Shown: positions 1 to 20,827 of the stretch, piece after piece
Layout of the letters: every line of letters starts with the position of its first letter
How positions within the stretch are numbered: the first letter of the stretch is position 1
DNA from: Promethearchaeota archaeon
Lineage (GTDB): Archaea > Asgardarchaeota > Lokiarchaeia > Sigyniarchaeales > SOKP01
DNA length: 44,100 nt
Reading direction: 5' to 3'
Assembly (NCBI GenBank): GCA_048939445.1
Contig: JBHLPN010000002.1
Coordinates: 1 to 44,100 of the forward strand
Translations under genes and position numbers: made by a program
The notes under the pieces: model-generated
The model's database searches: none
Seen by the model: the letters and a program-made list of their open reading frames with translations, nothing else
What the model was told of the DNA's origin: nothing

Positions 1-600
1 GTTTATAAAATGATTTCTAATATAATCATCTACACTCTCAAGTCCAATAGCAATTTCTATATATTTTTCTTTAAATAAACTTCTTAGTTCCTCTAATTTT
101 TCTGATGTTATGTATTCTAATCGCGATTCAATCACAACTTCTTTAAATTTCTCTACACTTGAGATTTTTTCAAAAATATAGGTTCTAGCTTCTTTAGGTA
201 TCTCAATTTCGTCCAAAAAGCTCCCAGAATTAAAGATTTTAAGAACATAATTATAAGAATCTTGATTTATTTCATTTATTTTATCATTAAAAGCATAATC
301 AAATTGGCTAATAAGTTGCGTAGTTGAAACATCTTTAGTAGTTGCATCTAGATAATATCCACACATAGAGCATCCTCCATGTTCACCTAATGCCCAACTA
401 CATCCCTTTGATCGCAAAATAATTGTGAATTCTTTTCCAATTTCATCTTTAAGCCTATCTTTTTTCGTCCAATAACTAATTGGCTGTCTAAATTGTTCTT
501 CTCTATAATTGACCTGCCGTTTTAGAGCGTGATGTTTGATAGAGTGAATCTTCTCAACAACAGATTTATTATCTTCAAAAATGTAATTATTGGTGTTCAT
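1..600 (-). CDS. Radical SAM protein, RaSEA-like (partner of ArcS in archaeosine formation). The 3' end runs off the window.
   Basis: Not in the ORF track because there is no stop inside the window. My translation from the ATG at 598-600 reads MNTNNYIFEDNKSVVEKIHSIKHHALKRQ..ILRSKGCSWALGEHGGCSMCGY..FNSGSFLDE..IGLESVDDYIRNHFIN. It has a Cys cluster plus SGSF/GLES-type radical SAM motifs. The start overlaps the arcS stop by 14 nt. Confidence 0.65.
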   Translation of the reverse strand, partial: MNTNNYIFEDNKSVVEKIHSIKHHALKRQVNYREEQFRQPISYWTKKDRLKDEIGKEFTIILRSKGCSWALGEHGGCSMCGYYLDATTKDVSTTQLISQFDYAFNDKINEINQDSYNYVLKIFNSGSFLDEIEIPKEARTYIFEKISSVEKFKEVVIESRLEYITSEKLEELRSLFKEKYIEIAIGLESVDDYIRNHFIN

Positions 601-2668
601 TGATCTTTACAATTCTCCCACTTTTTGAATTCTTTAAAAAATTAGATCCAACTATTAATTGTCCACTTCCCATAACCTTCTTCTTTCCTTTCTCTAATAT
701 AACCACTTGATTATTAGGGATAAGATCTAAACTATAATCTAATATACCAGTCCGAAATAATGTGTTTCCATGTATTTCTTTTCCATCAAAAACAATGTAA
801 TTTGTATTTATAGAACGTTGAGACTGAACTAGCCTACTAAGTCCAGGAATGGTTAACTCGATTTGACCTGTTGAAAATTTAAAAACCCCTAGTTTTTCTT
901 GGGTTTTTAAATCTTTTAAATCAATCTGGTTGGCGGATCTAATTCGGATAGGTTTTAGACCATTAGAAATAATTCTAATACCTGCTCCAGTACCAAATTG
1001 ATAATCTAAAATTTTGGTAAATTTCCTAGTCCAAGTTTTTGAGTAATTTTCAAAAATTAAATTACTTTTTTTAGGTCGAAATTTGTTTTTATATTCAATT
1101 ATTAATTTTTCTAAAGATTGGAGTGATTTATTAGAAGTTATTTTGTCAGAAATTTCAGAGAAAATAAAATTATGTGGCAATTTCGATGAAGCTCTCTTTA
1201 TTATTTCTACATATCCATTTTTTAAATGACAAATAATGGGGATATTTGGGTCATATTTTTCTATTATTTTAATAAGCATTTCTGATGTGATAGTTATTTC
1301 TTCATTATCCCATTCACCAGTTACGGAAATATCATAAGAATTCACGGGATAAACATTTTCTAATTGTCTAGGAATACACCCTAGAGGCGATGTTAAAATA
1401 AACTCTTGAAAAATTGGAAATTCTGGAAACTTTCTAATAATGTTATAAAATTTTTTATGAGATTTAGATTCTGAATATGGTTTCTTAGCTGAACATGGAA
1501 ACAAAATGATTAATGATGTCCAAGGTTCGGGTTCAAAGTTTTTAATTACTCTTTCCCTAAACTGTTGGAAATCTGGTCTATTATATGATAAAGGTCCTAG
1601 ACATCTCACTGTGTTACTTTTTTGCGTTATTGGAGTTTCATATTTAATAACATCGAAATACTCACTATCTAAGACTTTTAACATTGAGATTAATTTAGTG
1701 TCATCAAAAGAAGATTTTTCTACAAATAATCTAAAATCCTCATAATTCAAATATTGCTTGATTTTTTTCATATAATTATTTGCTGTAATTATATTATGCA
1801 AACACAATAAATCAATTTTTTCAGCAGAGTGCTTATCTTTTAACACTTTTTTTAATTTACCTTTACATGCTACGCATGAACAAGGGAAATATTTCACTTT
1901 ATATATTGGTAATAAATATTCTATTGTATCATAGAAGTTTTCAGCAGATAAAAACAACAAATATGATGAATCAATTAAATCAATTCCTAGATAAGTTAGT
2001 AATGGATAATATTTTGGGATTATTCTTCCAGAAGCCATGATAATTAAGTTATTATCCAAATCGTTTTTTAAACTTATAACACACTTTAGGATATTTCTAA
2101 AGTTGCTGAGGTTATCAAAAATATCTGCTAGATTTATAATCTTTATATTTTTAAATCGACTAATAAAGGGAAGATAAAGTTCTATTAATTCAGCATACTC
2201 AAAAATTTTTATAGATAAGCCAAAAATTAAATTCGGATGACTTGTTAATATTTCTTCTGATTTAACTAGATAATTTTTTATTTCTCTAGATGCAAATTCT
2301 TTACTAATAGAGGTGGTTGGAACATTGAACGGAATAAGGGATATTATATTGTCTTTAGAGAAAACCTTACGATTTTTTATTAATATTTCTTGAAATTTTT
2401 GTAGCATACCTGGATAAGTAAATATAAATCCATTGTTTTTAAATTTCTCTCGTATAAAACCAATTTTTAAGAAAAATTCTTTAGATATTGTAAATATATC
2501 ATGATTTTCAAATTCTTGAATAAAGCTAAATTGTTTCATCAAGGAGCTTTTTATAGGAATGATTACGTTAGGAGTTTTAATAAATAATTTTCTTTCTTTA
2601 GAAAAGACAATTCGACCTATTCTTGAATAACCAATCTTACTGGCTAAAACTTCAAAGAAATATGTCAT
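587..2668 (-). CDS. arcS: Archaeosine synthase ArcS (TGT-like N-terminal domain, DUF5591-type core, C-terminal PUA)
   Basis: 693 aa. Zn motif PCSCVACKG as in tRNA-guanine transglycosylases. Signature FPCSAKKPYSESKSH (PC-x3-KPY-x2-S-x2-H). PUA-like C-terminus (VVILEKGKKKVMGSGQLIV). Confidence 0.8.
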   Translation of the reverse strand: MTYFFEVLASKIGYSRIGRIVFSKERKLFIKTPNVIIPIKSSLMKQFSFIQEFENHDIFTISKEFFLKIGFIREKFKNNGFIFTYPGMLQKFQEILIKNRKVFSKDNIISLIPFNVPTTSISKEFASREIKNYLVKSEEILTSHPNLIFGLSIKIFEYAELIELYLPFISRFKNIKIINLADIFDNLSNFRNILKCVISLKNDLDNNLIIMASGRIIPKYYPLLTYLGIDLIDSSYLLFLSAENFYDTIEYLLPIYKVKYFPCSCVACKGKLKKVLKDKHSAEKIDLLCLHNIITANNYMKKIKQYLNYEDFRLFVEKSSFDDTKLISMLKVLDSEYFDVIKYETPITQKSNTVRCLGPLSYNRPDFQQFRERVIKNFEPEPWTSLIILFPCSAKKPYSESKSHKKFYNIIRKFPEFPIFQEFILTSPLGCIPRQLENVYPVNSYDISVTGEWDNEEITITSEMLIKIIEKYDPNIPIICHLKNGYVEIIKRASSKLPHNFIFSEISDKITSNKSLQSLEKLIIEYKNKFRPKKSNLIFENYSKTWTRKFTKILDYQFGTGAGIRIISNGLKPIRIRSANQIDLKDLKTQEKLGVFKFSTGQIELTIPGLSRLVQSQRSINTNYIVFDGKEIHGNTLFRTGILDYSLDLIPNNQVVILEKGKKKVMGSGQLIVGSNFLKNSKSGRIVKINEHQ

Positions 2669-2823: not shown

Positions 2824-4137
2824 CTAAAAAATTGAGAAATTAGTGTATGGCTTTAACTCATCTAAAACAAAATTTGTATAAGTATCTTCTATTTCCTCTG
2901 ATATATATAGATCTCTGATAAAATTTGCATAATCTTCAATATTTCTAACTCTAACAATAGCAAATAATCCATATTGTTCGCCAATTCGAAATAAATCAGT
3001 TATATTTCTATTTTTATCCAATCTAAGGGCAAGTTCATTGTATTTTGATGGATCTTTAGGTTTAATCCGAAGGAGATATTTTCCTTTAAAACCTAATTTT
3101 TTCGGATGAAAATTTACGGTATAATTTAAAATAACCCCTTTTTGTTCGAGATTTTTTATTCTATTATGAATAGTTGACTGTGAAATTTCCAATTTAAGTT
3201 GATCTTTAAAAATTTTTCTTATTTCATATGTAGATATTGGCTTAATTCCTTGACTGTCTCTTAATATCTTTAAAATAGTATAATCAATATCATCAATTTC
3301 AAAACTCGGATCAATTTTTTTCTTATCTAATTTTATTCCAGTTTTCCTTATACTTTTAATTATGCTATCTATTAGTTCGTCTGTTTTTACTATATTCTTT
3401 AGACCAGTAACTACTATTTTACCATTAGAAAAAATTAAAACTTTTGCGTAACCATTTTCAATCTTTATGACTAACCCTGGAAATACCTTCGGATTATATT
3501 CAATATCAGCATGGTTTTTAGCAATTAGATCTAAATCAACTTTTTTAGGAATTTCTATAACAATCTTCTCACTTTCATTATCCTTTTTTTCTTTATATTT
3601 GTCAAATAATTTTTCTACAAGCTCTTCTTCAATAGACAGGTTTGCCATCCTTAGGCTAATCCCATTTGTCTTGAACACCTTTATAGTTTCAATTATTTGA
3701 TATTTTTTAAAATATGATTTTGCCATTATTTTATCAATGGTGTTTAATATCTGATAATATTCTTCAGGGGATTTAAAGATAAATAGGGCGAATAATGAAA
3801 AGTCTCCAATAATTCCATCCAACATCCTCAAATGGGGAATTTCTAATAATTTTTTGACCAGCTCAGGTTCTTTCGGGTTGGTTTTAATTTCCAGCATAAC
3901 ATATTTCAAGTTATTTGGATTAATATTTGGATTAATGTTTATAGTAAAATTAGTAATTATTTTTTGATCTCTCAAACCATCAAGTTTGTTTTGATATGTC
4001 TGTCTAGACAGCCCTATCGCGCGTGAGTTTTTTGATATAATAAATTTAGTTTTCCCACCCAAGTTTTTGACAAAATATTGGGCTTCTAATTGATATTTAT
4101 TATTACTCATTTTAATACAATTTTGCAAATTCTTCAA
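2824..4137 (-). CDS. Multidomain regulator: Lrp/AsnC (HTH+RAM) - single TBP-like repeat - Lrp/AsnC (HTH+RAM)
   Basis: The N-terminal part is AsnC-like: IISKNSRAIGLSRQTYQNKLDGLRDQKII, then YVMLEIKT..IGDFSLFALFIF. The middle part, VDLDLIAKNHADIEYNPKVFPGLVIKIENGYAKVLIFSNGKIVVTGLKN, matches one TATA-binding-protein repeat (FPGL..LIFSSGK.V.TG.K). The C-terminal part is a second AsnC-like module: DYTILKILRDSQG..STIHNRIKNLEQKGVI..GLFAIVRV. Confidence 0.7.
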   Translation of the reverse strand: MKNLQNCIKMSNNKYQLEAQYFVKNLGGKTKFIISKNSRAIGLSRQTYQNKLDGLRDQKIITNFTININPNINPNNLKYVMLEIKTNPKEPELVKKLLEIPHLRMLDGIIGDFSLFALFIFKSPEEYYQILNTIDKIMAKSYFKKYQIIETIKVFKTNGISLRMANLSIEEELVEKLFDKYKEKKDNESEKIVIEIPKKVDLDLIAKNHADIEYNPKVFPGLVIKIENGYAKVLIFSNGKIVVTGLKNIVKTDELIDSIIKSIRKTGIKLDKKKIDPSFEIDDIDYTILKILRDSQGIKPISTYEIRKIFKDQLKLEISQSTIHNRIKNLEQKGVILNYTVNFHPKKLGFKGKYLLRIKPKDPSKYNELALRLDKNRNITDLFRIGEQYGLFAIVRVRNIEDYANFIRDLYISEEIEDTYTNFVLDELKPYTNFSIF

Positions 4138-4238
4138 AGATTATTAATCAAATGTTAAATCTTATATATAAATATTTGCGTTTGACCAAAAAAAGCCTTA
4201 TTAATTAATTAAAATTATTATTCTTAAAATTTAAAATT

Positions 4239-5516
4239 GTGAAAAAAATGGTAAATTATAAAGTTGCAGATGAGACTTTAGTTAATCAAGGAAAAGAAGC
4301 ACTTTATATAGCTGAAAGTAAAATGCCTGTTACTAGTAAAGTTATTCGGGAAAGATTTCTGAAAGAAAAACCTTTAGAAGGCATAAAAATCGCCGGTTGT
4401 TTACATATTACAAAAGAAACGGGTAATCTTGCTCGAACTTTGAAAGCTGGAGGAGCAGAGGTATATCTTTGTGGAAGTAATCCATTGTCAACTCAAGATG
4501 ATGTAGCAGCAGCATTAGTTCAGGAAGGGATTAATGTTTTCGCTTGGCATGGTAATACAGACGAAGAATTTTATTGGTGCATAAGACAGTGCTTAAATGC
4601 AAAACCTAATATTTTAATTGATGATGGAGCTGATATGATTGTCACTGCCCATCAGGAATATGAAGATCTAATAAAATCAGGTACTATTATTGCATGTCAA
4701 GAAGAAACAACTACAGGTGTAAAAAGATTTAAAGCGATGGATAAACAAGGAGTTTTGAAAGTACCTTTATTTCCTGTCAATGATGCTCGATGTAAAAATC
4801 AATTTGATAATGAATTAGGTACGGGTCAAGGTATAGTTTCTGCCATTTATGGAATGCATGTCCTTTTTGCGGGAAAGAATGTAGTTATTGCGGGATATGG
4901 CCATTGCAGTTCAGGTATGGCACTCAGAGCGCGAGGTTTAGGTGCCAACGTAACTGTCACAGAAGTAGATCCAATAAAAGCCTTACAAGCGAAGTTTGCA
5001 GGTTATAACGTGATGCCTATTGAGCAAACCCTGCCATATGCAGATATTATCCTTACTGCTACTGGTTGCAAACATGTAATTCAGCCAACTAAGGAAATGT
5101 TTGATAAGTTAAAGGATAGCGTTATACTCGGTAATCTCGGACATTTTGATATAGAGGTTCCAACCAAGGAGATTTACGAGTATGCTAAAGAGATCAAATC
5201 TATTAGGCAAGATGTTGAAGAGATCACCTTTCCTAATGATAAGAAAGTATATCTACTTGCCAAAGGACGTTTAGCGAACTTAGTTCTGTCTGAAGGTCAT
5301 CCTGCCGAAGTCATGGACATGTCGTTTGGACTCCAATCTCTCATGTCTGAATACATTGTCAAGAACAAGGATAAATTAAAGCCTGGGATGGTTGATGTTC
5401 CCGCTGAGATCGACGATAAGGTAGGATTTCTAAAACTTCAATCCATGGGCGTGAAGATCGATAAATTAACCGAAGAGCAGTACAACTACATCCACGGCTT
5501 TCTTGAGGGCACATAA
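4239..5516 (+). CDS. ahcY: S-adenosyl-L-homocysteine hydrolase
   Basis: 425 aa. CLHITKETGNLARTLKAGGAEV..CGSNPLSTQDDVAAAL. NAD-binding GYGHCSSGMA. EGHPAEVMDMSF. Alternative ATG start at 4248. Confidence 0.95.
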   Translation: MKKMVNYKVADETLVNQGKEALYIAESKMPVTSKVIRERFLKEKPLEGIKIAGCLHITKETGNLARTLKAGGAEVYLCGSNPLSTQDDVAAALVQEGINVFAWHGNTDEEFYWCIRQCLNAKPNILIDDGADMIVTAHQEYEDLIKSGTIIACQEETTTGVKRFKAMDKQGVLKVPLFPVNDARCKNQFDNELGTGQGIVSAIYGMHVLFAGKNVVIAGYGHCSSGMALRARGLGANVTVTEVDPIKALQAKFAGYNVMPIEQTLPYADIILTATGCKHVIQPTKEMFDKLKDSVILGNLGHFDIEVPTKEIYEYAKEIKSIRQDVEEITFPNDKKVYLLAKGRLANLVLSEGHPAEVMDMSFGLQSLMSEYIVKNKDKLKPGMVDVPAEIDDKVGFLKLQSMGVKIDKLTEEQYNYIHGFLEGT

Positions 5517-5694: not shown

Positions 5695-6198
5695 ATGAAA
5701 GAAAATGTAGAATTAGGTTTAGAAGAATTACTAGATTTGATGAGATTTGCTTTTCTTAGGTTGGATGGTGCGTGGTTCATGGCTTCGGCAGAAAAACTCG
5801 GTTTGGAGACTGCTACAGAATTAGATATAAAATCATGGGAGATGTTTTCTAAAAGGTTGGGAAAAAAAATCGCTTCAATAACAAATTTAAAAGGTCTTTT
5901 CTCTCAAACACTGCCAAAACTAATGAAGATACAACATACGCTCATGAATATGAATTCAGAAATAGAGGTTATTAATGAGAGCAAAGTTGTTCACAGAGTT
6001 TTAGAATGTGAAATTTGGAGTATGGTTAAGAAAGTATGGCCTCAGAATGCAATTCCTTGTCACAAGGTTACACTAGCAAGTATTAGGGGCTTGTTAAAGG
6101 GCGCTTTTCCAGAAAAAGAGTTTATTTTAAAACATAAGAAGAAAATTCCTTTGGGAGATCCTTGCTGTGAGATTGAAATTTCCGTTAAAGATTCATAA
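5695..6198 (+). CDS. Hypothetical helical protein, possibly DUF6125 / ATC-hydrolase-like
   Basis: 167 aa ORF. It shows only a weak resemblance (LRLDGAWFMASAEKLGLETATELD, C-terminal Cys pair). No firm motif. Confidence 0.35.
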   Translation: MKENVELGLEELLDLMRFAFLRLDGAWFMASAEKLGLETATELDIKSWEMFSKRLGKKIASITNLKGLFSQTLPKLMKIQHTLMNMNSEIEVINESKVVHRVLECEIWSMVKKVWPQNAIPCHKVTLASIRGLLKGAFPEKEFILKHKKKIPLGDPCCEIEISVKDS

Positions 6199-6409
6199 TA
6201 ACTTTTTATTTTTCAAGATTTTTCTTTACATTTTCTAATTATTAATCTTTGTTTATTTTTACTTTCTTTTAATTATTATATTTGTAAATAACTGTTTGCT
6301 CTAATGTCTAGCTATAATTTATTATGAAGCTTTACATACTTTTTTTAATTTTATTCATATAATCAATTGATAAAATTTAATAATTACTCAATAAGGATGT
6401 AATACGTAG

Positions 6410-7510
6410 ATGAATTCTGGAAATGTAGAACAAGAAAAAGCGGTAATAATTGATCTTGAAAATCGTGATATATCAAAAAGTTTATATGAAGCCTTTCTAC
6501 AAGCAGAGATTTTACCTATCATTAATAAATCTCATGAAATATATGTGCATGTACCATTAGGAGCCACTTTTTTCCGAGATAAACAACCAATAGGAGGAAC
6601 TTATCTTGATGTTAAATTTGCTGAATCTTTAATATTAGCAAGTGCTGGTAAACCAGTCACTTTTTATGAAACACCTGCAACAAGTAATCGGAATATTGAA
6701 TATCTATTTGAAAAATTTGGTTATACTCAACTAGCTAAAAAATATTCACAAGTCCGGGTTCTTTGTTTAAAAGAAGATTCATTAGACACTGAAGATTTAG
6801 TTAGTTTGAATTATGGTTTTGACTATCCCCCAGTTAGACTCCCTAAGTTTCTCTTCAATAATAAAAATTTGATTATTAGTTTTAGTAATCCTAAAGCGCC
6901 ATTTTCCGAATTTGTTGCAGGCTTTAAGGGACTTCCTTTTTCTCTGAGTGGTAAATCGCTTATTATAGGATCAACATTATTCCATAAGAAAAATTTATTG
7001 CATCTTGCTTTCTCTGATATAGGATTAGGATTAAAGGATTATGTAATTGACGCATTAGATAGGATACGTAAAGCAGGTGTTGTTTGTATTGGAATCAATG
7101 GAGGACGCTTCGCAGGTTCTATGGTTGATCAAGTAAAAGTAGAACCAATTGAGTGGAATGCACTTGTAGTTTCTACAAGCATCGGAATTTCAGATGCTGT
7201 GACGGCTGTATTAATGGGATTTAATCCACAAAAAATAGAATTTTTCGCTAATTTAGCTCAAAAAGGGCTAATCCCTTTCAATATTAGTACTATTCCCATC
7301 ATTGAAATCGGAAATAGTCGTAATCGTCTAGAGGAACAACTAAAATTAAGTAATCCCTTTTTACCACAAGGAACTCCAATAACAACACGTCAATGGATAT
7401 TTGGACTCCTTAAACAAGTTTCATTTATAGACAGGTTACACTTAATTAGCAAAATTATTCCTTCAATAATCAGATATAAATTTACAAGAAAAAATAAATC
7501 CAACATTTAA
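6410..7510 (+). CDS. DUF362-like protein (function unknown)
   Basis: 366 aa. The C-terminal segment ALVVSTSIGISDAVTAVLMGFNP resembles the DUF362 D.VA.D....lmG..P motif. The rest is divergent. Confidence 0.45.
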   Translation: MNSGNVEQEKAVIIDLENRDISKSLYEAFLQAEILPIINKSHEIYVHVPLGATFFRDKQPIGGTYLDVKFAESLILASAGKPVTFYETPATSNRNIEYLFEKFGYTQLAKKYSQVRVLCLKEDSLDTEDLVSLNYGFDYPPVRLPKFLFNNKNLIISFSNPKAPFSEFVAGFKGLPFSLSGKSLIIGSTLFHKKNLLHLAFSDIGLGLKDYVIDALDRIRKAGVVCIGINGGRFAGSMVDQVKVEPIEWNALVVSTSIGISDAVTAVLMGFNPQKIEFFANLAQKGLIPFNISTIPIIEIGNSRNRLEEQLKLSNPFLPQGTPITTRQWIFGLLKQVSFIDRLHLISKIIPSIIRYKFTRKNKSNI

Positions 7511-18841: not shown

Positions 18842-20827
18842 TTAGAATATGCAATCTCTTAAAGAAACTGCCCCTATCTTGGATTCATTTAGAATTTTTA
18901 GAAAGTTTTGTAATGGAAGTTCGTCTGCGTTTACTTTTTCCATAAATAGAGTACCTCCATCAATAATTGTTTGAAATTTTTGGAATAATGCGATTCTTTT
19001 ATTCATGGAAAGGTTTGATTCACTTCTTATTAATCTTGATGAGTATCCCTTTATTTTTCGGTTGTATTGTGTAAAACCATTATGCCAGGAATTTTGTAAA
19101 TAAGAATCATAATGAGGTTGACTCATAACAAAATTATCACCCTCAAGTTCATTTCTTTCCTCTATAATTTTTTTCATAAAAGATAAAATTCGTAAAGCAA
19201 AAGTTTCGCTATTTTCAGTTCTATCAAGTTCAATTCCACAATGATTTAGAACAGCTTCATTAAAACCAAAAAAACTAATTGATTTTAACGCATTTTTGAT
19301 TATATTCTTTGGATTACTGTCTAAAATCCGTGTAACTATGGAATTCCATTGATTAAGTGAGTTCAATTTCTTTTGCACAAATTCCTCCTTATAATCAAAC
19401 AATTTAAAAATCGACATCATTTTATCTAGCAATAAATCTAAAAATAAATCGTCATTTTGCCCTGCTTCAACTGATATCATGTGTAAATTAACAAGTATCT
19501 TGTCTAAAATGATTTGATCCTCATCAGGATTGGGTATTTGAATTATAATAGAATTAAGCAGATTTGAGTAGTTTTTATTGTACAGAATTACATTTTCTTT
19601 AAGATTATTGAAAATTTGGTTTTTTATATTTTTGTTTTCTGATTCTGAGGGAAACAGCTTTGAAAATTCGAATAATATAAGTGGTTGAATTTGATCTCCA
19701 CTCTGTTTTGCCAATGAATTAAGGAATTTTTCATCAATTAGATTCTGATTTGAAGATTCTTCAATTAATTTTTCATTATAATTAAAATCAAGAGTTAAAG
19801 AAGATTTTAGTCTATTAAAGTGATTATTAAATCTAAGGATTTGAGATATTAATAAGTGTAAGTCAAATGGCATTGCTTTCGGTAAAGAAAATAAAGAAAG
19901 AAATTGATTATTGAAATTCCCTAGAAGCAGATCTTCAGAAAAAAATTGTTTAGTAAGATATAAAAGATCTAAGAATTTTATAATCATTTCTGAATGATTT
20001 TCGATTTTTTTTATTTCATGCTTTAGATGGGTATCGTTCTTGAAAAGATAATCCACTAAAGTTTTTGTATTTATATATAGGCTTAAGGGTCTTAATGCCC
20101 AGTAATTTAAGTGCAGTAAAGTGATTTCTCCAGATAAATATAAATCAGCTAGATTCTTAGGGATGAGATTTAAAAGCAAAAATTGCTCAGATACGTCAGA
20201 ACCTAATTTTTCAATAAATATTTTAGGGGTTATTTTGCTACTATGGGAATTGAATAATTTAAATACTTCGAATGGAGGAGTTCCCAATCGAGTTAATTTG
20301 TGCCTTACCTCTTCTAAACCATTTTCCAATAAAATTGCATTTATATATTCTCTCATGAGTGGCGCAGTCATATATTCTATATTTGTTTTAGAGAGTCGCT
20401 CTTCTACTTCACGGGCAATTTGTCTAGCTAAATAACGCTCCAATTCACCTTCTTTAATTAAATATTCCTCAATTTTACTCGCATCAAAAAGTTCTTTAGA
20501 ATATTTTGATGTTCGGATCATCTTTGCTTGATTTTGCTTATTAAGAATTTGCTCAATAGATAAAATTTTATCTATAATTTGCTCGCCCAAAAATGTAATA
20601 GAATACCCTTCATCCGAGGAAAAAACTAAATCACTCTTCTTTAATGTGTTAAGATGAAAAGATAAATTCACAGAAGAGACATCATTACCAATGACCTCTT
20701 TTTGAAGCTTTGAGAATGATAAAGGTGTTTGAGCATTTTTTAACTTTTTTAGGAGATCAATCCTAACCTTCTGACCTAAAGTTTTTAACTGCTTTTCTAA
20801 AATATTCTGATTTTTGTCGGTATTCAC
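18842..20827 (-). CDS. wHTH (ArsR-like) + ATP-cone + NrdD-like domain protein. It lacks a recognisable glycyl-radical/Zn-ribbon C-terminus.
   Basis: 661 aa. The N-terminal wHTH is VRIDLLKKLKNAQTPLSFSKLQKEV..NLSFHLNTLKKSDLV. The ATP-cone is IRTSKYSKELFDASKIEEYL...TAPLMREYINAILLENG. The later segments LYLSGEITLLHLNYW, FFGFNEAVLNHCG and IIDGGTLF resemble class III RNR (NrdD) blocks, but the protein ends at ..SLRDCIF without RxxGY or CxxC pairs. Confidence 0.6.
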   Translation of the reverse strand: MNTDKNQNILEKQLKTLGQKVRIDLLKKLKNAQTPLSFSKLQKEVIGNDVSSVNLSFHLNTLKKSDLVFSSDEGYSITFLGEQIIDKILSIEQILNKQNQAKMIRTSKYSKELFDASKIEEYLIKEGELERYLARQIAREVEERLSKTNIEYMTAPLMREYINAILLENGLEEVRHKLTRLGTPPFEVFKLFNSHSSKITPKIFIEKLGSDVSEQFLLLNLIPKNLADLYLSGEITLLHLNYWALRPLSLYINTKTLVDYLFKNDTHLKHEIKKIENHSEMIIKFLDLLYLTKQFFSEDLLLGNFNNQFLSLFSLPKAMPFDLHLLISQILRFNNHFNRLKSSLTLDFNYNEKLIEESSNQNLIDEKFLNSLAKQSGDQIQPLILFEFSKLFPSESENKNIKNQIFNNLKENVILYNKNYSNLLNSIIIQIPNPDEDQIILDKILVNLHMISVEAGQNDDLFLDLLLDKMMSIFKLFDYKEEFVQKKLNSLNQWNSIVTRILDSNPKNIIKNALKSISFFGFNEAVLNHCGIELDRTENSETFALRILSFMKKIIEERNELEGDNFVMSQPHYDSYLQNSWHNGFTQYNRKIKGYSSRLIRSESNLSMNKRIALFQKFQTIIDGGTLFMEKVNADELPLQNFLKILNESKIGAVSLRDCIF

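Follow-up and report, generated by a model that had tools for sequence, protein, structure and literature searches.

In archaea and eukaryotes alike, promoters are universally recognized by TBP, the TATA-binding protein, and among the gene-specific regulators of archaea the Lrp-type proteins are the main group. Parts of both families are joined in one gene near the start of a contig from Promethearchaeota archaeon (GenBank assembly GCA_048939445.1, contig JBHLPN010000002.1), whose positions 1 to 44,100, the whole stretch that was analysed, are referred to here as the window. The gene lies on the reverse strand, with ahcY (for S-adenosyl-L-homocysteine hydrolase) transcribed divergently from it on one side and an archaeosine-synthase-like (ArcS-like) gene downstream of it on the other. 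These genes, the domains of the encoded protein and the elements of the region between the two divergent genes are listed in Table 1. The window as a whole is AT-rich (25-33% G+C) and carries core archaeal genes, including those for RNA polymerase subunits A' and A'', an SRP54-type GTPase and NurA.

Table 1. Features of the tandem-Lrp/TBP-repeat gene and its surroundings (positions of the window; residues of the 437-aa open reading frame; HTH, helix-turn-helix; BRE, transcription factor B recognition element; AF2, AlphaFold2)
Feature	Position	Strand	Residues	Remarks
Whole open reading frame	2824..4137	-		437 aa; TTG start at 4137; stop codon 2824-2826
N-terminal diverged Lrp/AsnC unit	3643..4074	-	~22-165	HTH with GLSRQTYQNKLDGLR, then RAM-like alpha-beta fold
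Variable linker	3568..3642	-	~166-190	predicted helical; AF2 helix 160-173 (428-aa numbering)
Single TBP repeat	3322..3567	-	~191-272	Pfam PF00352, PDB 1pcz
C-terminal Lrp/AsnC unit	2827..3300	-	~280-437	winged HTH with invariant 'ISQSTIHNRIK.LE', and RAM domain
ahcY	4239..5516	+		probable start ATG 4248; Pfam AdoHcyase and AdoHcyase_NAD
ArcS-like gene	587..2668	-		TGT-like domain PF01702 and DUF5591 PF17884 (E=8.5e-47)
Divergent control region	4111..4247			137 bp, conserved
Putative ahcY BRE-like element CCAAAAAAAGCC	4186-4197	+		from archaeal promoter geometry
Putative ahcY TATA-like tract TTATTAATTAATTAAAATTA	4198-4217	+		from archaeal promoter geometry
Putative BRE/TATA of the regulator gene, ACGCAAATATTTATATATAA	4162-4181	-		ACGCAA then ATATTTATATATAA; from archaeal promoter geometry
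Conserved box TTAACATTTGATTAATAAT	4140-4158	-		over the regulator's predicted transcription start
Near-palindrome TTGCAAAATTGTAT	4115-4128	-		just before the regulator ATG

An initial annotation, made from the letters alone, had described the open reading frame (ORF) as a single TBP repeat embedded between two Lrp/AsnC units and divergent from ahcY. The ORF was found exactly as described, the order of Lrp unit, one TBP repeat and Lrp unit was borne out by Pfam, by phmmer against PDB and by hhalign, and the divergent neighbour does encode an AdoHcyase. The only shift concerns the start codon. Because most orthologues, and also the database protein P0001 (428 aa, 99% identical), begin at an ATG that corresponds to codon 10 of the long ORF, at 4108-4110, this ATG is the likelier start, and the gene would then span 2824-4110 and encode 428 aa. 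The gene order around the P0001 gene is the same as in the window; the exact window protein has no entry in the assembly index.

The C-terminal Lrp/AsnC unit is recognized directly by profile searches. Pfam AsnC_trans_reg (PF01037) matches residues 359-426 with 33-45 bits against a cut-off of 25, and HTH_24 (PF13412) matches residues 315-336 with 22.6-24.1 bits against 21.9, with HTH_AsnC-type falling below its own cut-off. Furthermore, PH1519/FL11 from the PDB aligns by phmmer to residues 280-433 (E~2e-13), spanning both the HTH and the RAM domain. The N-terminal unit is more diverged: when the N-terminal 195 residues were scanned, AsnC_trans_reg scored below its cut-off (E=0.019, 15.3 bits). 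The relationship emerges from a comparison of the two units by hhalign, in which the N-unit profile matches the C-unit profile with 95.6% probability (E=1e-8) over 94 columns, which start at the HTH recognition helix and take in most of the RAM fold. The recognition helices of both units are invariant across orthologues and look functional. The named NCBIfam Lrp equivalogs (Lrp, LysM, LrpA, AsnC) gave at best ~61 bits against cut-offs of 180-250, scores too low for orthology with any named Lrp.

The assignment of residues ~195-270 to the TBP superfamily, on which the initial annotation had staked its reading, is well supported. Pfam TBP (PF00352) covers residues 195-265 with E=8e-17 and 61.3 bits against a cut-off of 22.9, the central 80 residues scanned by themselves gave 63 bits, and phmmer against the PDB aligned residues 194-272 to both repeats of the Pyrococcus woesei TBP 1pcz (E=2.8e-19). 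NCBIfam TBP models scored 41-61 bits on the protein, against cut-offs of 181-347. There is no second TBP repeat in the protein and no other TBP-like ORF within the window. The linker of residues ~166-190 that precedes the repeat is present in "long-linker" orthologues and missing from "short-linker" ones, and has a mean identity of 45%.

Structure models agree with these domain calls, although the AF2 input alignments were too shallow and too similar. The AF2 monomer of the window protein, built with 77 homologues, has recognizable folds in an unreliable arrangement (mean predicted local distance difference test score, pLDDT, 64; predicted template modelling score, pTM, 0.39), and the repeat is its best-modelled part (pLDDT 74-83). 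Foldseek searches against the PDB matched the modelled folds to Lrp/FFRP proteins (2cyy, 2e1c, 2cg4; 2cyy and 2e1c at the top) and to archaeal and eukaryotic TBPs (1ais, 1mp9, 2z8u). A model of the orthologue P0096, which lacks the TBP repeat, was built from 54 sequences and reached a mean pLDDT of 58; with its pTM of 0.35 it lends no support either way to an intramolecular pseudo-dimer of the two Lrp units.

Several lines of evidence bear on the origin of the repeat. With residues 186-275 as query, an exhaustive HMMER search returned 2429 proteins at E<=1e-3, and the top matches were ordinary TBPs with two repeats, in which the N-terminal repeat usually gave the better match. A profile of the family likewise favoured the N repeat, which outscored the C repeat in 105 of 139 TBPs with two repeats (11 bits on average). 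A tree of repeats places the inserts with the N-terminal repeats of a single TBP subset, to which a protein named as a Helarchaeota TBP belongs; the C-terminal repeats of the same TBPs cluster elsewhere. The inserts and these N repeats have the signature "...FS(T/N)GK.V.TGL" in common. The profile scores, the tree and the shared signature together show that the insert is a fairly recent copy of the N-terminal half of a host-type TBP and that it derives from the N-terminal repeat of Asgard-type TBPs. The insertion site is the linker of 8-10 residues that joins the two Lrp units in the TBP-less form.

The same searches brought up other departures from the two-repeat form of TBP. P0200 (320 aa, from a cluster of 13 members found in sediment metagenomes) has a second, unrelated single-repeat architecture, with an N-terminal region of ~228 residues that has no Pfam match followed by one TBP repeat at the very C-terminus. 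Its repeat is 46% identical to that of the window protein and groups with it and with Asgard N-terminal repeats. P0128 (272 aa) is an archaeal-type TBP with three repeats, and P0121 (376 aa) is a eukaryote-like TBP with four, its whole core being duplicated exactly in tandem, which may reflect an artefact of assembly or gene model.

The residues that face DNA in TBP appear to be kept in the repeat. Among 37 inserts compared at TBP-equivalent positions, the two Phe residues that kink the DNA are present in all 37 (F99-equivalent) and in 34 (F116-equivalent; the second Phe is lost in L029, for example), and Lys or Arg occupies the phosphate-contact positions equivalent to R98, R105 and K120 in 36, 32 and 36 inserts, respectively. 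The V122-equivalent is Val or Ile in 35/37 and the L114-equivalent Leu or Ile in 33/37, and the F-P-G and G-K motifs are invariant. The mean net charge of the inserts (+3.0) is near that of N repeats (+2.5) and far from that of C repeats (-1.4). The stirrup is also of the N type: at the position equivalent to E284 of human TBP, 28 of the 37 inserts have Asn, as against Glu in 34 of 45 C-terminal repeats. From TBP-TFIIB/TFB structures, we take the Glu of the C-terminal repeat to be a contact for transcription factor B (TFB).

The family extends well beyond the window. A protein search found 486 relatives, some of them TBP-carrying (400-443 aa at full length, with PF01037 and PF00352 and 63-99% identity, from metagenome-assembled genomes of Asgard archaea) and a second set of ~318 aa with two Lrp units and no TBP. 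The names that the TBP-carrying proteins have in databases are automatic, either "Lrp/AsnC ligand binding domain-containing protein" or "hypothetical". Locus counts were made on 79 of the 97 matches in GTDB species representatives. Every one of the 79 belongs to Asgard archaea, labelled Promethearchaeota or Promethearchaeia with some Hermod-, Hod-, Thor- or Odinarchaeota. The TBP form is one uninterrupted ORF of 417-447 aa in 36 of these listed loci (one cut by the contig end), and the TBP-less form, of 309-351 aa, occupies the other 43 (two cut by the contig end). The uninterrupted TBP-carrying ORF also occurs in more than 60 protein clusters, and its recurrence there and in 36 species representatives disposes of the fusion artefact that the initial annotation had considered. 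The orthologue occurs once per assembly among the loci returned, across Asgard archaea, and since each of the 79 listed loci comes from a different assembly, the forms with and without the repeat are alternatives at one locus rather than paralogues.

The combination of Lrp/AsnC with a single TBP repeat was not recognized as a described family in the initial annotation, and no published description of it was found; coverage of the literature was incomplete, so that this is no proof of absence. The architecture is apparently an undescribed arrangement of two well-known families.

A comparison of alleles indicates that the repeat has had a different history from the gene that carries it. The repeat evolves about three times faster than the Lrp units (ratio of nonsynonymous to synonymous divergence, dN/dS, of ~0.3 versus ~0.1). 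Across 12 close pairs dN/dS was 0.15-0.70 in the repeat, compared with 0.00-0.17 in the N-unit and 0.06-0.20 in the C-unit; selection on the repeat is purifying yet clearly relaxed. In a tree of the shared Lrp part, all of the basal lineages are without the repeat, and the TBP-carrying genes make up one derived group that also holds TBP-less genes. The tandem-Lrp gene is the older and highly conserved part, and the repeat a faster-evolving, accessory insertion into it. The pair L003 (with the repeat) and L044 (without it), whose Lrp parts are 88% identical and whose flanks are similar, points to a precise loss or gain between close relatives.

Alleles have also moved between lineages. Bootstrapped neighbour-joining (NJ) comparison of the regulator tree with a tree of the flanking AhcY and ArcS-like proteins gave strongly supported discordance. 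For example, L055 (without the repeat) and L009 (with it) are 92% and 86% identical in their flanking proteins and just 69% in their Lrp parts. L026 and L032 have ArcS-like proteins that are 84% identical, but the regulator and repeat of L026 are nearest to those of L028 and L030, whose ArcS-like proteins are only 53-57% identical to the one from L026. Because the regulator and its flanks give discordant trees, the locus is a recombination mosaic, in which alleles with and without the repeat have been exchanged between Asgard lineages. These are NJ trees on short alignments, which do not settle the number of gains, losses and transfers. A history of one gain and three losses, suggested by the first NJ tree, proved too simple in light of the strongly discordant flank comparison.

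In three close pairs (L002/L003, L003/L006 and L008/L010) the synonymous divergence (dS) of the N-unit is several-fold below that of the repeat and the C-unit of the same pair; for L002/L003 the values are 0.12 for the N-unit, 0.71 for the repeat and 0.55 for the C-unit. Either a recombination breakpoint inside the gene or a nucleotide-level constraint near its 5' end could account for the low values.

The surroundings of the gene are constant. In essentially all of the 79 loci ahcY is adjacent and divergent, and in nearly all the ArcS-like gene lies downstream on the same strand, whether the repeat is present or not. The two divergent start codons lie 133-138 bp apart in most loci. In the 38 loci of the derived clade the intergenic region contains long blocks that are at least 90% conserved, and its identity is 80-92% where the dS of the adjacent gene is 0.5-0.9, a conservation that exceeds that of synonymous sites. 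The region would hold two back-to-back core promoters, with BRE, TATA and start-site positions assigned from archaeal promoter geometry. Since the two TATA centres are ~35 bp apart, the upstream region of each promoter is the other promoter. TTAATTAAT-type boxes are repeated in the region, and the boxes TTAACATTTGATTAATAAT and TTGCAAAATTGTAT have TTAATTAAT-type or TTGCAA-type half-sites in common with the ahcY TATA tract. Known Lrp/FFRP operators are similar to these two boxes (PMC2715240, PMC2995911). The layout is the classic one for a local, autoregulated regulator of the Lrp type and its divergent gene, and ahcY is most likely the regulated target.

Other features of the control region were less informative. 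An Rfam search found no riboswitch upstream of ahcY. The operator-like motif TTGCAAAATTGTAA occurs six times within the window against 2.9 expected, which is not significant, and the inverted repeats of this AT-rich intergenic region are no better than chance in the single sequence, so that only cross-species conservation is informative. The DNA motif TTGCAAAATTGT (4115-4128, reverse strand, at the same position in L001-L047) reads in frame as Leu-Gln-Asn-Cys, and the apparent conserved "LQNC" N-terminal extension of the TTG-start ORF results from the translation of this conserved DNA. Five orthologues (L001, L033, L043, L044 and L047) lack an ATG where it usually lies, and their translation may begin at this TTG; the TTGCAAAATTGT motif could serve as an operator, as a start region or as both.

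The reading favoured here, tentative though quite possible, is that the protein is a local regulator that senses a ligand and acts on ahcY and its own gene, with an accessory repeat that binds the minor groove of TATA-like or other AT-rich DNA and probably occludes the TATA box. In this model the single-chain tandem Lrp/AsnC regulator has two HTHs and two RAM domains, so that one chain probably amounts to one conventional Lrp dimer. It would sense a small molecule and control the back-to-back promoters of ahcY and its own gene by binding at the conserved AT-rich boxes that overlap both TATA boxes and its own start site. At a guess, with gene context as the sole basis, the ligand is a metabolite of the methyl cycle such as S-adenosylhomocysteine (SAH), adenosine, homocysteine or methionine. 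One derived allele lineage gained a copy of the host-type TBP N-terminal repeat in the short linker between the units. Tethered beside the HTHs, this repeat would bind the minor groove by itself, as a half-saddle, or together with the repeat of another chain of the Lrp oligomer, and so strengthen or extend the occupancy of the TATA boxes. Because one chain, with its two Lrp units, probably corresponds to a whole "Lrp dimer" plus one TBP half, a saddle would need two chains. The expected outcome is competition with TBP and TFB, and so repression, rather than nucleation of a pre-initiation complex, because the N-type stirrup would place a surface without the TFB-contact Glu at both ends of any such saddle. 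This scheme is consistent with the behaviour of Lrp-family regulators, which work on or beside TATA boxes and start sites and, in the case of Ptr2, contact TBP (PMC2995911). A single TBP-like domain, that of RNase HIII, also binds a nucleic-acid duplex (PMC4132731).

Several observations weigh against this reading. Both AF2 models are too uncertain to position the repeat relative to the other domains. Among TBP-carrying orthologues its mean pairwise identity is 50%, compared with 85% for the N-unit and 78% for the C-unit, and it must be dispensable, because TBP-less alleles occur among close relatives. Within the derived group, intergenic sequences do not differ systematically between loci with and without the repeat, and so no cis element specific to the repeat was found. 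The T124-equivalent is Thr or Ser in 24 of the 37 inserts and Asn in 10. Finally, strand S1, which in TBP carries central Asn and Val contacts to DNA, is the least conserved part of the repeat and is replaced or shortened in many orthologues. The Asn/Val positions could not be aligned reliably in the inserts, and S1 follows directly after the N-unit (by ~5-8 residues) in the short-linker class and after an extra helical segment of ~25 residues in the long-linker class.

A more novel reading, distinctly unlikely on present evidence, is that the protein is a ligand-gated half-TBP: two chains of the Lrp oligomer would bring their N-type repeats together in a homodimeric saddle on the TATA box that is unable to bind TFB, a gene-specific anti-TBP that spread between lineages by allele replacement. 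If true, it would be a living example of the homodimeric single-repeat TBP that has been postulated as the ancestor of the two-repeat protein.

The alternative that survives best, although unlikely, is that the repeat is a protein-interaction module that contacts the basal machinery or some other partner rather than mainly DNA. It might pair with cellular TBP or cap its concave face (sequestration), or it might mimic TBP for a TBP-binding factor, and in any of these roles it would be a hard-wired version of the contact between Ptr2 and TBP. Lrp-family activators such as Ptr2 do work through direct contact with TBP (PMC2995911), and the repeat has an outer position on the regulator, with the RAM core on one side of it and the second HTH on the other. 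Its fast-evolving surface and variable S1 would be compatible with a role away from DNA. However, the side chains that are kept best are the ones that face DNA in TBP, namely both Phe residues, the Lys or Arg at three phosphate-contact positions and the Val or Ile at V122. The TFB-contact Glu is also missing from the stirrup, and the conserved neighbourhood contains no gene for a partner.

The relaxed evolution of the repeat raises the possibility that it is a near-neutral passenger, inserted once into a tolerant linker and drifting toward loss with no function of its own. Such drift would explain why its mean identity and its dN/dS depart so far from those of the flanking units (50% versus 78-85%, and a several-fold higher ratio), why TBP-less alleles are nested among TBP-carrying ones and why L029 could lose the second Phe. 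It is nevertheless improbable: dN/dS is below 1 in 12 of 12 close pairs, 36 species and more than 60 protein clusters preserve an unbroken reading frame, F-P-G and G-K do not vary, the basic residues of the DNA face are retained, and the TBP allele has apparently spread between lineages with distant flanking genes.

Somewhat more improbable still is an activating role, as a ligand-gated alternative TBP in which the repeats of two chains form an N-N homodimeric saddle, bend the TATA box and nucleate the pre-initiation complex. Such a saddle would carry the N-type stirrup, with no TFB-contacting Glu, at both ends. S1, which is needed for repeat-repeat pairing, is variable and in short-linker forms begins only ~5-8 residues after the N-unit, and the insert is dispensable in close relatives that have identical promoters. 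These points outweigh those that suggest the idea: a single repeat with its DNA face apparently retained, fusion to Lrp modules of a family known to oligomerise (PMC2995911), and two putative TATA boxes in the conserved control region. As for a frameshift or mis-assembly fusion, or an enzyme such as the Lrp-like siroheme decarboxylase AhbA/AhbB, the weak NCBIfam matches to AhbA and AhbB (E=5e-5 and 1e-4) and the sub-threshold N-unit are outweighed by the same intact ORF in 36 independent assemblies, by AhbA/B scores of 22-23 bits against cut-offs of 125-140 (with Lrp/LysM models at ~61 bits) and by HTH recognition helices that are invariant in both units, so that this very improbable reading already looks refuted.

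The favoured reading, in which a local Lrp-type regulator carries a DNA-binding accessory repeat, can be set beside several known systems. The closest relatives of its Lrp units are the archaeal Lrp/AsnC proteins (FFRP; FL11/PH1519, 2cyy and 2e1c; Pyrococcus furiosus LrpA, 1i1g), which have the same winged HTH and RAM ligand domain and provide the best sequence and fold matches for residues 280-437. Proteins of this class are sequence-specific DNA binders that assemble into dimers to octamers and answer to small-molecule effectors. In this family it is typical for the regulator gene to be divergent from a metabolic gene and for AT-rich operators to cover the TATA box or the start site (PMC2995911). 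Unlike these proteins, the window protein fuses two complete units with a foreign domain between them and an N-unit too diverged for Pfam, and the cross-species conservation of its units (78-85%) is unusually high. AhbA/AhbB and NirDL also use two Lrp-like units as a functional pair, although they have no regulatory role; the window protein differs from AhbA/AhbB in its very weak match, its invariant HTH helices and its context in the methyl cycle rather than heme synthesis.

Ptr2 of Methanocaldococcus jannaschii, an Lrp activator that recruits TBP, offers a further parallel, in that its mechanism involves TBP directly, through contacts between the two proteins (PMC2995911). Ptr2 contacts free cellular TBP non-covalently, whereas the window protein has half of a TBP in its own chain. 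Since the stirrup of this half does not belong to the TFB-binding type, the protein may act in the opposite sense to Ptr2, by occlusion.

As for TBP itself (1pcz, 1ais, 1mp9; Helarchaeota NVM04375.1), the insert has the repeat fold and the signature YNPE-FPG ... LIFS-GK-V-TG in common with the archaeal protein, is 35-45% identical to N-terminal repeats and retains their DNA-face Phe and basic residues. It differs in being one embedded repeat with an altered S1, with no intramolecular saddle and no C-terminal TFB-contact stirrup, and the window protein thereby lacks two defining features of TBP, the two tandem repeats and the TFB-binding stirrup. It does fit the class of single-TBP-domain proteins, which includes the haloarchaeal TbpA-type monopartite proteins, the N-domain of RNase HIII and the N-domains of DNA glycosylases. 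The survey by Brindefalk et al. 2013 (PMC3597702) covers glycosylases, RNase HIII and small monopartite proteins and mentions no Lrp/AsnC fusion. The known TBP-domain fusions are ancient, highly diverged, mostly recognized by structure and attached to enzymes, whereas the insert is recent, clearly TBP-like and located inside a regulator.

A regulator with a recent half-TBP copy would be a natural reuse of the general machinery for specific control, in the archaea nearest to eukaryotes. The locus offers a tractable system for asking whether one TBP repeat, by itself or in a homodimer, is able to bind TATA DNA and bend it, for studying competition between a regulator and TBP at compact back-to-back promoters, and for studying control of the methyl cycle through ahcY in Asgard archaea. 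The natural alleles with and without the repeat, at near-identical promoters in close relatives, are ready-made controls.

A few neighbouring genes deserve mention. The neighbour at 587-2668 (reverse strand) is no plain tRNA-guanine transglycosylase (TGT); its weak TGT match and DUF5591 form a combination typical of archaeosine synthase (ArcS). Between ahcY and a gene for an ArsA/Get3-like ATPase, at 5695-7510 on the forward strand, lie genes for a DUF6125 protein (167 aa) and for a 366-aa protein with no Pfam match. Neither gene occurs at that position in L080, the 99%-related contig, or in many of the other loci, which makes this spot beside the conserved core a variable one. Farther along, the 661-aa protein encoded at 18842-20827 on the reverse strand has a DUF7347 at its N-terminus together with an anaerobic ribonucleotide reductase (NRDD) domain, for which just the C-terminal part of the model is matched.

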